A stretch of 54,618 nt of DNA, taken from contig JAGXFS010000068.1 of the NCBI GenBank assembly GCA_024637275.1, positions 1 to 54,618 on the forward strand, in the 5' to 3' direction. Positions 30,946 to 35,052 of the stretch are shown here, piece after piece. Each line of letters starts with the position of its first letter. Positions within the stretch are counted from its first letter, which is position 1. The notes under the pieces were generated by a model, which did not search any database, had not been told where the DNA came from, and worked only from the letters and a program-made list of their open reading frames with translations. The position numbers were made by a program, and so were the translations under genes. The stretch is from Acidimicrobiia bacterium. Lineage in GTDB: Bacteria; Actinomycetota; Acidimicrobiia; Spongiisociales; JAENVV01.

Positions 30946-31016
30946 GCGTGCGATGGGAGTCGCCGGGGTGGTCGTCGCAGCGCATAGACTGCGTCGAGAG
31001 ATCGTGGAGGAATGGC

Positions 31017-31364
31017 ATGGCAGGCGTGAAGCGTCCCGTAGTCGACAACATAGAGAGCACGGCACGGGACCACCTCGCTAATGAACGAACATTCTTGGCT
31101 TGGGTGCGGACCTCCTTGGCCGTAGTGGGGCTCGGGGTACTCGTCGGCAAGCTGGTCGAATCCGACGGCGTCGTTGCGGAAGTCCTGGGTTTACTTATGA
31201 TCGCATTCGGGGCTGGCATGCTTATCTACGGCATTACCCGGTTTGAACGTGTAACGGCGCTGCTCGATGAGCATAAGTTTGCCTCGGCCAGGCGTGGGCC
31301 GCTCGTTTTAGCCGCGCTAGGGATCATTATCTCGGTGGGAGCGGCGATCCTTCTCCTCGTCTGA
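31017..31364 (+). CDS. YidH/DUF202 family inner membrane protein
   Basis: ARDHLANERTFLAWVRT signature and three hydrophobic helices. Confidence 0.92.
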   Translation: MAGVKRPVVDNIESTARDHLANERTFLAWVRTSLAVVGLGVLVGKLVESDGVVAEVLGLLMIAFGAGMLIYGITRFERVTALLDEHKFASARRGPLVLAALGIIISVGAAILLLV

Positions 31365-31366
31365 GG

Positions 31367-32254
31367 TCACCGGCCCGAGAGTACGGCTAGAGCAAGACCA
31401 AGGATGGTGAATACCAGAGTCGTGACTGCACCGGCGGTCGCCAAGCTGTAGCGGTTCGATCGCACCGCCCACAGAGTTAACCATCCTGGAGCGACCGCGG
31501 TGAAGGCGAGGGTCGCTGGCCGGCCAAGACTCCCGAATAGGACTCCGGCGGCGAGGAGGGCTGCGCCACCCAGGAACGCCAGACCGATCAGAACCTCGGT
31601 TGCCCTTCGACCTATTCGTACTGCCAGGACTCGCTTCCCGGCTGCCCGATCCGATTCTATGTCCGGGATCTCGAAGGCCAGCATCGTTGCGAAGTGGACC
31701 GGGAACAGGACCGCGATCGAGATCAATAATGGCGAGGACGGTGCACTCCCCTGACTTGTGGATCCGATAAGTGGGACGGCCCCAATTACCACTGCGGTTG
31801 TTGCCGCTTCGCCCCATCCGGTCCCCAACAGTCGAATCGGAGGCATCGAATACATCCAGGATATGCAGAGCGCTCCGAGGCCGATCGCGGCTGCCGCCGG
31901 ACTGAACGTCCACATCGCAAGGGCCGTGATGATCGTGACGGCCGATGTGATCTGTCCGGCCCGAAGGGCTATCCGTGGGTCGATGCGTCCGGTCAGCAGC
32001 ACCCCACTACCACCGGAGAATGCGGTCCGATTGGTGATACCTACGTCAACAAATCGATCGGCGTACTCGTTCAAGAAATGGGCAGTCAGCTGCGCAGCCG
32101 TGACCATGAGTTGGCCGGCCAGGTAACGATCGGCGCTGATAGGCGACGCCGTGGATGCACCGAGGGCGTACGCCAGCACCCCTCCCGCCAGGAAGTGGGG
32201 ACGACTGAGGATCAAGAGGTCGCGCAAAGATGCAGTACTCCCTTTTTGGCTCAC
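31367..32254 (-). CDS. UbiA-superfamily prenyltransferase (MenA-like)
   Basis: RPHFL, NEYADRFVD...FSGGSGVL, YSMPPIRL...GWGE, DIESDRAAGKR. The GTG at 32254 overlaps the stop of the upstream peroxiredoxin. Confidence 0.85.
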   Translation of the reverse strand: MSQKGSTASLRDLLILSRPHFLAGGVLAYALGASTASPISADRYLAGQLMVTAAQLTAHFLNEYADRFVDVGITNRTAFSGGSGVLLTGRIDPRIALRAGQITSAVTIITALAMWTFSPAAAAIGLGALCISWMYSMPPIRLLGTGWGEAATTAVVIGAVPLIGSTSQGSAPSSPLLISIAVLFPVHFATMLAFEIPDIESDRAAGKRVLAVRIGRRATEVLIGLAFLGGAALLAAGVLFGSLGRPATLAFTAVAPGWLTLWAVRSNRYSLATAGAVTTLVFTILGLALAVLSGR

Positions 32255-32748
32255 GCCAGAGATCGCAAAGCCTGGATAACGGGGTCGAGGAGTGGTAATT
32301 CCTCGGCATTTTCGGTGCTCCAGGCGTACCGGACCGTACCTGCCCCATCGATGACAAAGATCGACCGTTTCGCAAGGCCAACGTGGCCCTTCCACTCCTC
32401 GTAGCGAACCCCGAAGGCTGCCGATATGGTGCCATCCCAGTCCGACAGCAGCGGAAAGCCGATTCCGATATGCTGAGCGAAGGCCATCTGGGAAAACGTA
32501 GCAGTAACGGCGATACCGACCAGGTCTGCACCGAGCGACTTGATCTCACCAGCGACCGACCCCAACTGGGTCAGCTCCGTGTTTCAGTAGTCACCAAAGT
32601 CAAAGACGTAGAACGCTATGACAATCGGCTTTCCCGGAGTTCGGCTGACGGAGCGGTTGAAGGTTTGGCGTAGCTCGAATTCTGGCGCTCGGGCGCCCAC
32701 TGACAAACTGCCTGTCGAGGCAGCAGACGAGAACCGGTCGTGCTCCAT
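32251..32748 (-). CDS. Peroxiredoxin (AhpC/TSA, AhpE-like) with in-frame UGA at the peroxidatic Cys position: candidate selenoprotein, 165 aa
   Basis: Manual translation from ATG 32748 gives ...LSVGARAPEFEL...GKPIVIAFYVFDFGDY[TGA 32586-32584]NTELTQL...FPLLSDW...AKRSIFVID..GTVRYAW. The ORF track reports only the part after the UGA. Confidence 0.85.
32555..32575 (-). promoter_or_regulatory. Putative bacterial SECIS hairpin
   Basis: GCUGACCC-AGUUG-GGGUCGGU: an 8-bp stem (2 G-U pairs) starting at +9 after the UGA. The apical loop is 16 nt from the UGA, with G in loop position 2. Confidence 0.6.
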
Positions 32749-32890
32749 AGGCTGATCCTACGCGAGACAGCTCCTGGCAAGCACCGCTGTCAGGGAGCGC
32801 TTCTCATGCGTGGCCGGGTCCTGACTCGAACCTTTGAGCCTCCCCGGCCGTCCTCAGGTGGCGTTCAGCCGGGATGATTAGGGTCACACC

Positions 32891-33628
32891 GTGCCGATGC
32901 CCAATAATGCCGCCCCTCTGCCAGCCACGCATCTCGGGTTGTCTCGGCCATTCGGTTGGGTCCTCGTGGTGATCTCGCTTGTCGCCCTTGCCTGCCTGTA
33001 TGGATGGATTGTTCTAACGCATCCCGAGACTTTTGGACTCGATTCGCGGATCCACGATCTTGCGTCGCGCGGTGCCCTGCCTGGTCGCGGCCGTGCTCTG
33101 GCTGCCGTATCCGAGGGCACCAACACGGGTCCTCTCTCTGTGGCCTCGGTTGCCGTAGCTGCCGGGATTGGAGTTGCCTTCTCCATGCGGCGAGCGGCGG
33201 TGTTCGCCTCGATGGTCGGCTTGAGTGCCTTGACCGTCACCGTCCTCAAAGCAGTAGTCGCTCGCAGTCGACCTGATGCCGGAGCGGAAGTGCTTGCGTC
33301 GTTCGCCTGGCCCTCTGGACATTCTGCCGGTGCCCTCACATTCGCCCTAGCGGTGACCGTCACCCTGTATCGGATTGGTCCAAAACCCGGCCTTGTGGCG
33401 GCGATCGGCTTCATACCTGCCGCACTCCTGGTCGGTTACAGCCGCATCTTCCTGTCGGTGCACTGGTTCTCTGACGTCGTAGCCGGGTTTGCAGTCTCCG
33501 TTTTCGCGGTTGGCCTGGTTCTGGCCGTTCAAACCAAGCGAGTGTCAACTGATCGGCACCGACCAGTCATAGCGTACGGAGCCGTCCTGGTGGCCGTTAG
33601 TGTCATGGTGACCACGGGACTGCGTTAG
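32891..33628 (+). CDS. PAP2 family membrane phosphatase
   Basis: KAVVARSRP, AWPSGHS, SRIFLSVHWFSDV motifs. Confidence 0.92.
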   Translation: MPMPNNAAPLPATHLGLSRPFGWVLVVISLVALACLYGWIVLTHPETFGLDSRIHDLASRGALPGRGRALAAVSEGTNTGPLSVASVAVAAGIGVAFSMRRAAVFASMVGLSALTVTVLKAVVARSRPDAGAEVLASFAWPSGHSAGALTFALAVTVTLYRIGPKPGLVAAIGFIPAALLVGYSRIFLSVHWFSDVVAGFAVSVFAVGLVLAVQTKRVSTDRHRPVIAYGAVLVAVSVMVTTGLR

Positions 33629-33636
33629 GCGGCTTA

Positions 33637-34263
33637 ATGAAATCTCTATTTGGGAACCGGCGTCAATCGGGCACCAAGAACGGTGCGTTGTACGACTCAA
33701 AACGGTACGCGCTGCTGAATCGATGGGACCCGCGGCATATGGTGACGGTTGCCACTCATCTTGATCCACGCGCCGGTGACCGGATTCTCGAAGTCGGCTG
33801 CGGTCGCGGCCACTTGACCAAGCGGCTACGTGATCTTGGGGCCGATGCCGTTGGGATCGATGCCAACCCGCACGCCGCTGCTGAGGCCGTAACTGAGGGT
33901 GTATCTACCGGGAACGCCGAAGCTCTTGACTACCCGGATGACACCTTCGACAAGATTGTCTCGGTACACGCCATCGAACACATACCCAATATCGAGGCGG
34001 CCTTTTCGGAGATGGCCCGGGTCCTGAAGCCGGGCGGTAAGGCTCTGTTTATCTACCCGGCCGAACCGATCCAGGGTATCTGGGCGGTTCCGACCGCCAT
34101 CGTCCTTCATGGCAATCCGCTCAGGGCGCGTGACGTGCACTGCAACTGGCTGTGGCCATCGAAAGTGCAGGGCATTGCTGAACCGACCGGTCTGGTTCAC
34201 GACCATTCAAAGTTTATGCTCCTTTCCTCACCGCAGTTCGTTTCGTTGTTTTTGAAGGTTTGA
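33637..34263 (+). CDS. Class I SAM-dependent methyltransferase
   Basis: ILEVGCGRG, GNAEALDYPDDTFD, EMARVLKPGG. Confidence 0.9.
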   Translation: MKSLFGNRRQSGTKNGALYDSKRYALLNRWDPRHMVTVATHLDPRAGDRILEVGCGRGHLTKRLRDLGADAVGIDANPHAAAEAVTEGVSTGNAEALDYPDDTFDKIVSVHAIEHIPNIEAAFSEMARVLKPGGKALFIYPAEPIQGIWAVPTAIVLHGNPLRARDVHCNWLWPSKVQGIAEPTGLVHDHSKFMLLSSPQFVSLFLKV

Positions 34264-34404
34264 GCCAGTCGGATTAGTTGCGAGCTACGAACCCGGTTCT
34301 GGCCGGCCATCACTGGGACGATCGGCCGGAATCGGGGGCCCGAATCAGCTAACGTTCAGGTTGGACCGGCCACACTGGTGGATGGGCAATGCAGGGAGGG
34401 CGTC

Positions 34405-35052
34405 ATGGATGCAGCATTTGGCGGTATCTACGTCATCACTGCGTACTTCCTGGGGGCTATTCCCGTTGCCTATCTCTACGGCAAAGCCCGCGCTGTCGAC
34501 CTTTCTTCCTCTGGCTCGGGAAACCTCGGGGCTGGCAACACCACCCGCCTGCTCGGGGCGAAGGCCGGCGCTCTTGTTGCACTCCTGGACGGAATGAAAG
34601 GACTGCTCACAGTCTTTGCCGGTCGGTGGTTGGGTTTCGGGACCAGCGTGATCGCGGCTGGTGCCCTGGCATCGGTTGCTGGGTCAGATTGGTCCGTCTT
34701 TCTTGGGCGTCGATCGGGCCGCGGGCTAGCAACGTCGTCGCTGGCCATGCTGGCTTTCGATCCGATTGCCGTCCTGTGGCCCGGTGTTTGGTCGGCGATC
34801 GGATGGAAGATCGGCGGAGGGATCTCCGGATTCTTCGGCTGGACTTTTATCTGGTTGGCCGCCTACGGGTTGGGTCGCCCAACGGAAACTGTATTGCTCG
34901 GCGCCGGCATGGGCCTCCTCATGATCATTCGCAGAGCCCAGGGGAACTTGAACGATCCGGATCAAGACAATCCCCTCACCCGTATTCTCTACGACACGGA
35001 CCGTCGGCAGCCGTCACGAGAACTGGCTACGGGTGACGGCTCGTTGGCCTAG
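34405..35052 (+). CDS. Glycerol-3-phosphate acyltransferase PlsY-like protein
   Basis: AYFLGAIP, GSGNLGAGNTTR, LLDGMKG, GRGLAT. Some motifs are divergent (GSDWS in place of GHxxP). Confidence 0.75.
   Translation: MDAAFGGIYVITAYFLGAIPVAYLYGKARAVDLSSSGSGNLGAGNTTRLLGAKAGALVALLDGMKGLLTVFAGRWLGFGTSVIAAGALASVAGSDWSVFLGRRSGRGLATSSLAMLAFDPIAVLWPGVWSAIGWKIGGGISGFFGWTFIWLAAYGLGRPTETVLLGAGMGLLMIIRRAQGNLNDPDQDNPLTRILYDTDRRQPSRELATGDGSLA

Follow-up and report, generated by a model that had tools for sequence, protein, structure and literature searches.

A putative selenocysteine (Sec)-encoding gene for a protein of the peroxiredoxin (Prx) fold is located on the minus strand of the window, i.e., the whole stretch of 54,618 nucleotides analyzed in this study (contig JAGXFS010000068.1 of an Acidimicrobiia bacterium, or C107 in our numbering of the 2.95-Mb assembly, which has 184 contigs and is 90.6% complete). 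The gene runs from an ATG at position 32748 to a TGA stop at 32253-32251, and its reading frame is broken only once, by a TGA at codon 55 that lies within FYVFDFGDY-U-NTELTQLG (U denotes the position of this codon). The features of the gene are listed below, each with the evidence on which it was placed.

32251-32748, minus strand: candidate coding sequence (CDS) of the predicted Prx-fold selenoprotein, with 165 codons followed by the stop codon TGA (32253-32251); reading frame, Pfam match and orthologues
32584-32586, minus strand: in-frame UGA, codon 55, at the column of the peroxidatic Cys, probably read as Sec; orthologues and profile alignments
32555-32575, minus strand: hairpin of the bacterial Sec insertion sequence (bSECIS) type, with 5' arm 32575-32568, loop AGUUG 32567-32563 and 3' arm 32562-32555; fold and orthologues
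32251-32565, minus strand: 104-amino acid (aa) open reading frame (ORF) reported by gene callers instead of the whole gene, with a TTG start inside the hairpin loop; ORF list and database entry P0002
32755-32760, minus strand: putative -10-like hexamer TAGGAT, which ends 6 nt 5' of the ATG and includes an in-frame upstream stop TAG; comparison of the loci of the genus

The protein obtained by reading through codon 55 matched the Pfam family AhpC-TSA (PF00578) with 86.9 bits (E-value 1.3e-24; cut-off 26), the Redoxin family being matched too, and it has no Cys besides the Sec column. A preliminary description of this stretch had proposed a continuous Prx fold of 165 aa that starts from the ATG at 32748, has TGA as its codon 55 and is free of Cys, and all of these features are indeed present in the sequence. 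It had also stated that standard gene callers truncate the gene. In agreement with this, the window's own entry in a large protein collection (P0002) is a 104-aa fragment from the TTG at 32565, with 100% identity to the read-through protein and 63% coverage of it. When this protein was used to search a collection of 5.8 billion proteins, 217 matches were obtained, and 119 of the 120 matches listed span just 51-65% of the query. The four fragments inspected (P0002, P0009, P0015 and P0109) all start 3' of the TGA, and the names given to the ~104-aa fragments in the databases are "redoxin domain-containing protein" or "peroxiredoxin".

With regard to the start of the gene, a -10-like hexamer (TAGGAT, TATGAT or TAAGAT) was found at an identical distance from the ATG in all seven loci of the genus. 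Its spacing makes a leaderless mRNA that begins with the ATG at 32748 plausible.

Conservation of the in-frame UGA and the downstream hairpin

To follow this gene across genomes, we searched 41 related genomes, a sample of 401 genomes of the class and a sample of 401 genomes of the phylum, all with stop codons read through. Thirteen strong matches (E <= 1.6e-48) were identified in the related genomes, 19 matches (E <= 1e-25) in the class sample, all within the same order, and four matches in the phylum sample, three of which belong to other classes; each match contains one TGA. Three further orthologue sequences came from a scan of named contigs. After deduplication, TGA occupies the same column in 31/31 orthologues (3/31 from other classes), which show 50-82% identity and share the motif FYVFD(F/Y)Gxx-U. 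Three loci (L032, L051 and L073) are from genomes flagged as unpublished; dropping them leaves TGA in 28/28. No orthologue with Cys (TGC or TGT) at this column could be found in the 41 + 401 + 401 genomes at the thresholds used.

Close homologues with TGC or TGT, or sequencing reads giving TGC, had been named in the preliminary description as observations that would speak for a nonsense mutation or a read error. What we found instead was TGA in every close homologue, as described above. No difference was listed at 32584-32586 in the contigs that span these positions in four runs, which belong to three studies apart from the likely source. In addition, the median ratio of nonsynonymous to synonymous substitution rates (dN/dS) was 0.34 before the TGA (codons -36 to -1, 300 pairs) and 0.22 after it (codons +1 to +95, 352 pairs); both sides of the TGA are under purifying selection. 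The same codon doubles as the terminator in 18 of 28 orthologues, so that TGA is not reassigned genome-wide in these organisms.

Within the genus the gene is present in seven of eight genomes, the exception (G003) being only 68% complete, and it is absent from the searches of 14 genomes that represent other genera of the same family. Its distribution is therefore patchy. Judging from the run labels, carriers of these genes are found in cold-spring, soil, sediment and beach-sand metagenomes; none of the runs listed was of RNA. In one genome only (locus L030, G028:C11), the open frame extends ~130 residues past the Prx domain, and by eye this extension resembles a domain of the RidA/YjgF type, which could reflect either a fusion or a lost stop codon.

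The hairpin 3' of the UGA (GCUGACCC / AGUUG / GGGUCGGU) has eight unbroken pairs, including two G-U wobbles, with an energy of -12.4 kcal/mol, and its loop begins 16 nt past the UGA. Both the coordinates and the fold thus bear out the 8-bp hairpin with AGUUG loop at this distance that had been noticed earlier. According to the bSECIS model given in the legend to Fig. 2 of PMC13188914, a bSECIS element has a loop of 3-9 nt and a stem of 4-16 bp, a G within the first two loop positions, a distance of 16-37 nt between UGA and loop, and a minimum free energy of -7.5 kcal/mol or lower. The window hairpin agrees with all four criteria of this model (position 2 of the loop is G, followed by U), and so do the hairpins of 26 of the 28 orthologues tested. 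An uninterrupted stem of 5-9 bp closed by an AGUU, AGUUG or AGUUC loop was observed at a constant offset in 31/31 orthologues.

The codons of the hairpin loop are also fixed at synonymous sites. Codon +6 is CAG in 28/28 orthologues. Wherever codon +7 specifies Leu (22 orthologues) it is UUG, and the remaining six have UUC (Phe) there, whereas other Leu columns mostly use CUG or CUC. The wobble base of Gly codon +8 and the first base of codon +5 vary in concert (U-A in 9, U-G in 8, G-C in 4, G-U in 2 and A-U in 1), and in the four A/G combinations the register is shifted by one. When the 31 sequences were placed in the tetraloop register, 77.1% of cells were able to pair, compared with 36-45% in slid controls; a slide of +1, which gave 69%, corresponds to the alternative pentaloop register. 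Two-sided changes were seen in four of the seven pairs of the tetraloop register, and the covariation score of 0.254 (shuffles, 0.137 +/- 0.018) was reached by none of 500 shuffles, although related sequences may beat shuffles, which makes the slid controls the more appropriate reference. In one orthologue (L072), the otherwise invariant Gly63 is replaced by Glu (GAG) and the facing arm reads CUC rather than UCC, which preserves the pairing. Constraint acts on the hairpin stretch at the RNA level besides the protein level.

On the single sequence alone, the hairpin is only weakly above chance: in this G+C-rich genome, the frequency of an 8-bp stem with a loop of 4-5 nt is 0.0013 at a fixed position and 0.021 over any of 17 offsets. 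The weight of the hairpin evidence thus lies in its conservation in 31 orthologues and not in the single sequence. An Rfam scan of window positions 31000-34000 returned chance-level matches only.

Placement among peroxiredoxins and the active site

A profile built from 28 orthologues was compared with solved structures and aligned at full length with 2ywn/4g2e (2.2e-30), 2cx3, 3hjp and AhpE 1xvw (2.6e-22). In these alignments, the U column coincides with the peroxidatic Cys (Cp) of 2ywn (FYPAAFTQVCTKEM) and 2cx3, and V48 and G52 stand at the Pro and Thr of the PxxxTxxC motif. R128 (within AKRSIFVID) occupies the column of the conserved Prx Arg (LAKRAVFVID in 2ywn) and is present in 28/28 orthologues, as is Arg at this column in 120 of 132 Cys-containing relatives; the retention of the catalytic Arg, already noticed in the preliminary description, is therefore a property of the family. 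The nearest structures (2e-30 to 3e-22), i.e., archaeal Bcp1/Bcp4-type Prx (2ywn/4g2e, 3hjp and 2cx3) and AhpE of M. tuberculosis (1xvw), are similar to the window protein in length (~155-165 aa), position of Cp and the Arg. They differ from it in having Cys, the canonical P...T...C and S-x-D, the last of which corresponds to A-x-T in the Sec family.

We then searched 1.84 billion representative proteins with the profile and obtained 11,606 matches at E <= 1e-3. The best 150 were examined, and 140 of them cover the Cp column. Residues at the active-site columns of these 140 relatives were as follows.

Pro column: P in 100, V in 15
Thr column: S in 65, T in 40, G in 18
Cp column: C in 132
Arg column: R in 127

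Sec in the window family is thus paired with Cys in 132 of the 140 best relatives. Both canonical motif residues are missing from the Sec family, the Pro of PxxxTxxC being Val and the Thr (or Ser) being Gly in 28/28 orthologues. These replacements had been pointed out before and are evident against the structures as well as against the 140 relatives. The accompanying suggestion that they may mean a different chemistry is weakened by the 15 relatives with Val and the 18 with Gly. Gly at the Thr column occurs together with a Cp Cys in 16 of 132 Cys relatives, and two Cys proteins (P0182 and P0188) combine Val, Gly and Cys. Since Val and Gly also occur in Cys relatives, the motif is not specific to Sec, and its rewriting characterizes part of this Prx clade instead of following from Sec alone.

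The nearest Cys proteins are P0125 (41% identity, with a CxxxxC arrangement) and P0133 (36%, FYVFDFSGDC). A quick phylogenetic tree was reconstructed from 134 rows, comprising 28 Sec sequences and 106 matches of 140-200 residues that cover Cp; shorter, longer and fragmentary matches as well as the three out-of-class Sec sequences were left out. In this tree the Sec sequences cluster together in a group (SH-aLRT 98) whose neighbourhood consists of relatives with non-canonical motifs at weak support (87-89). Two of the nearest non-Sec neighbours, P0178 and P0223, have V-H-A at the Pro, Thr and Cp columns and hence no redox residue.

The Sec family also has invariant residues of its own. R27, F30, G63 and W104 are rare in the 132 Cys relatives (found in 6, 2, 7 and 5, respectively), and so are W119 (15), K120 (11) and H122 (14), which belong to a WKGH motif. 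The invariant A80 stands where Ala is found in 3/132 relatives and Ser in 122/132, and the invariant T82 where Thr is found in 0/132 and Asp in 110/132. Twenty-three of the 28 members are Cys-free and the other five have one or two Cys at non-conserved positions; for this reason a resolving Cys is not part of the mechanism of the family.

Previous studies have catalogued several Sec-containing families of the Prx type, including Prx (TxxU), Prx-like UxxC/UxxU, UGC-containing Prx-like, cd02970 UxxS, Redoxin-family UxxC and Prx-SUH CxxU (PMC2398784 Table 2, PMC9312934, PMC13188914). With the motif VxxxGxxU followed by xxE, the window protein fits none of the types in the parts of these catalogues available to us. 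In comparison with the catalogued Sec-Prx (pfam00578/COG1225 Bcp, TxxU), as far as it is described there, it has in common the AhpC/TSA fold, Sec at Cp, the Arg, a downstream SECIS element and Cys homologues at the Sec column. It differs in having VxxxGxxU instead of the PxxxTxxU listed there, in forming its own group in the tree, and in that its nearest Cys proteins are only 36-41% identical and no Cys orthologue was found. The Prx-like thiol:disulfide oxidoreductase selenoproteins (UxxC/UxxU) share the Pfam domain and occur in related Acidimicrobiia; unlike them, the window protein has U-N-T-E (U-x-x-E in 26/28 orthologues), is Cys-free and belongs to another clade. Literature searches for a Sec peroxiredoxin in Acidimicrobiia, or for PxxxTxxC in connection with selenocysteine, retrieved nothing, although supplements of surveys might list members as 'Prx' or 'Prx-like'.

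At the level of curated models, the top-scoring NCBIfam model for the window protein was PrxU (NF040737), a selenocysteine peroxiredoxin model of 233 positions for typical Prx, with 48.1 bits against a cut-off of 270, so that the protein is not a member. PrxU is reportedly the Sec peroxiredoxin of Eubacterium acidaminophilum described by Sohling and co-workers in 2001. The model of Prx-SUH (NF045827, CxxU) gave 21.3 bits against a cut-off of 298, and the window protein differs from it in being Cys-free.

A second Prx-fold gene with an in-frame TGA was observed in two other genomes (L069, G021:C1:867100-868400; L070, G011:C22:800-1900). It has the sequence FLRGDW-U-PYCNGQL (UxxC) and fits the catalogued Prx-like thiol:disulfide oxidoreductase selenoprotein type, of which many such matches with one TGA are present in the 41 related genomes. 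None was detected in the window's genome with that query.

If codon 55 is read as Sec, the product would be a protein of 165 residues that adopts the AhpC/TSA fold, has its nearest kin in the 1-Cys or BCP-AhpE-like group, keeps the Arg and lacks a resolving Cys. Its selenolate would be oxidised by a hydroperoxide to a selenenic acid, which an external thiol partner would recycle. Such peroxide reduction is suggested by the fold, the position of Sec and the retained Arg, and we regard it as the somewhat more probable activity. However, peroxidase activity cannot be taken for granted, because the protein retains only two of the four canonical residues of the Prx active site, and this is a point against it.

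It is possible, although we hold it to be less probable, that the protein is a genuine Prx-fold selenoprotein without peroxidase function, and that it acts in thiol/selenylsulfide exchange, on another oxidised substrate or in a redox relay. The loss of Pro and Thr in all 28 members, the displacement of a near-universal Ser and Asp by A80 and T82, and the family's own R27, F30, G63, W104 and WKGH would all be compatible with such a role, as would the absence of a matching motif type in the available catalogues and the statement in a 2026 review that the hydrogen bonds formed with the peroxide substrate depend critically on the PxxxTxxU motif. On the other hand, Sec is located exactly at the Cp column with the catalytic Arg kept, and the nearest solved relatives are active peroxiredoxins by the names their depositors gave them. 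Moreover, the Thr column is tolerant within the clade, with Ser as its commonest residue (65/140) and Gly tolerated beside Cys, and no conserved neighbour hints at another pathway.

A further idea concerns the origin of the rewritten site. It is rather unlikely, though conceivable, that Sec, being deprotonated from the outset and a strong nucleophile, dispensed with the otherwise universal activating Thr and with the Pro, and gave rise to a selenium-dependent lineage whose active site was rebuilt (V48, G52, A80, T82 and WKGH). The absence of Cys orthologues from the searches of about 840 genomes would then be accounted for.

Sec machinery and the reading of the UGA

In the genome to which the window belongs, selA (355 bits) adjoins selB (325 bits) on contig C80, both scoring above curated cut-offs. 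Two selD genes were identified as well (386 bits each, above the curated cut-off), each with its own in-frame TGA at SHGAG-U-ACKL, the known Sec position of SelD. These two genes are near-identical (C58:4016-4945 and C51:5-928), and in each of them the TGA is followed by two stable hairpins; in a metagenome-assembled genome, such a pair may have arisen by true gene duplication or may reflect redundancy between strains. Of the Sec machinery whose presence the preliminary description had made a test of its proposal, selA, selB and selD are therefore in place, but selC, the gene for tRNA-Sec, was not found in this assembly.

We consider it highly probable (about 0.9) that the gene genuinely encodes Sec, with SelB and the SECIS element directing its insertion at the peroxidatic site, and that the product is a BCP/AhpE-like Prx-fold protein of the 1-Sec type. 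The ribosome would decode UGA codon 55 as Sec, and the hairpin, which lies inside the CDS with its loop 16 nt past the UGA, would recruit SelB together with Sec-tRNA(Sec). The proposal of a Prx-fold gene with Sec at the peroxidatic site and a SECIS hairpin has thus held up, given the UGA in 31/31 orthologues, the hairpin in 31/31 and the presence of selA, selB and selD.

Several observations weigh against this reading. First, tRNA-Sec could not be detected in the assembly, either by ARAGORN (41 tRNAs) or with Rfam RF01852, whose best hit (46.6 bits) is tRNA-Ser(UGA). In five of five congeners a tRNA-Sec with anticodon UCA was found (76.3 bits), and the sequence flanking it there corresponds to the terminal 277 nt of contig C90 in the window's assembly. 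Because the matching flank runs to the end of that contig, it is most likely that the tRNA-Sec gene of the window's organism falls in an assembly gap. Second, co-occurrence with selA carries little weight, since selA is common (275/401 genomes in the class sample and 265/401 in the phylum sample), and in one out-of-class carrier (G781, unpublished, 91% complete) selA was undetected, selD with TGA being present. Third, two orthologous hairpins (L026, -5.0 kcal/mol; L056, -7.0 kcal/mol) fall short of the bSECIS model in energy alone when the uninterrupted stem is counted. The fold of the 71-nt stretch as a single sequence was no better than that of shuffles (z = -0.11), and unguided RNAalifold recovered no more than a core of three pairs at this position, with a weak consensus energy of -1.64 kcal/mol, which reflects the two registers among lineages and the shortness of the element. 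Finally, P0011, which was the lone full-length protein among the 120 listed matches and comes from a single contig of 1.7 kb, carries Arg in place of Sec.

This protein also bears on the alternative that a residue free of selenium (Trp, Cys, Arg or Gly) is inserted at the UGA, or that two separate polypeptides are made, which we judge very improbable. Besides P0011 with Arg, a single protein in or near the Sec family (P0166) has Trp at the column (FYQFDFGDEW). The codons for both residues are one base off TGA, and these cases are possibly true substitutions, read errors or alternative-code translations. Sec insertion at codon 55 is predicted from sequence comparison, which leaves some room for such read-through. 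However, TGA is the normal terminator in 18/28 of these genes, and the conserved SECIS-type hairpin, the frozen codons of its loop and the complete selA, selB and selD genes are specific to the Sec route. As to two separate products, the profile match extends over the full length, so that neither the 54-aa N-terminal nor the 104-aa C-terminal piece would make up a whole fold.

A pseudogene that arose from an ordinary Cys peroxiredoxin by nonsense mutation, or a TGA produced by faulty sequencing or assembly of such a gene, would fit the missing tRNA-Sec and the habit of annotation pipelines to take TGA as a stop, but is hardly credible in view of the TGA column in 31/31 sequences down to 50% identity and across classes, a dN/dS well under 1 on both sides, the lack of any TGC/TGT form in the genomes searched at the thresholds used and the unchanged TGA in contigs of three other studies.

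Genomic context and significance

The genes next to the Sec-encoding candidate in the window are listed below.

31367-32254, minus strand: UbiA-family prenyltransferase, with a candidate GTG start that would overlap the stop codon of the Prx-like gene (GTGA); Pfam UbiA, 79.6 bits
32891-33628, plus strand: PAP2 phosphatase, upstream and divergent; family match
33637-34263, plus strand: class I methyltransferase; family match
34378-35052, plus strand: PlsY-type acyltransferase; family match

These neighbours are membrane-lipid or quinone-type genes, and no NCBIfam equivalog was reached for the UbiA-family protein. The UbiA/PAP2 arrangement was observed in all seven loci of the genus and in none of 21 other loci. 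A neighbour cluster that seemed to be present at 25 loci was rejected, as it represents an antisense ORF of the Prx-like gene itself, and no neighbour gene common to the whole family was found. Genomic context thus gives no functional lead, since the UbiA/PAP2 linkage is confined to the genus and no other neighbour is shared.

Sec at the peroxidatic site of Prx is a phenomenon already known in general. What distinguishes this family from the catalogued Sec-Prx (TxxU/PxxxTxxU), so far as the available catalogue entries go, is that Sec and the Arg are kept, Pro and Thr are both gone, and the Sec form alone was found. The family is widespread in uncultured Acidimicrobiia and occurs in some other Actinomycetota, and public collections hold almost only ~104-aa fragments of it; a curated model would mend many annotations. 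In biochemical terms, it would also make it possible to ask directly if selenium substitutes for the activating hydrogen-bond network of peroxiredoxins. Should the idea of a selenium-dependent lineage be true, the family would provide a natural experiment on the role of the Prx active-site residues, and the substrate range or the reductant of its proteins may differ from those of Cys peroxiredoxins.

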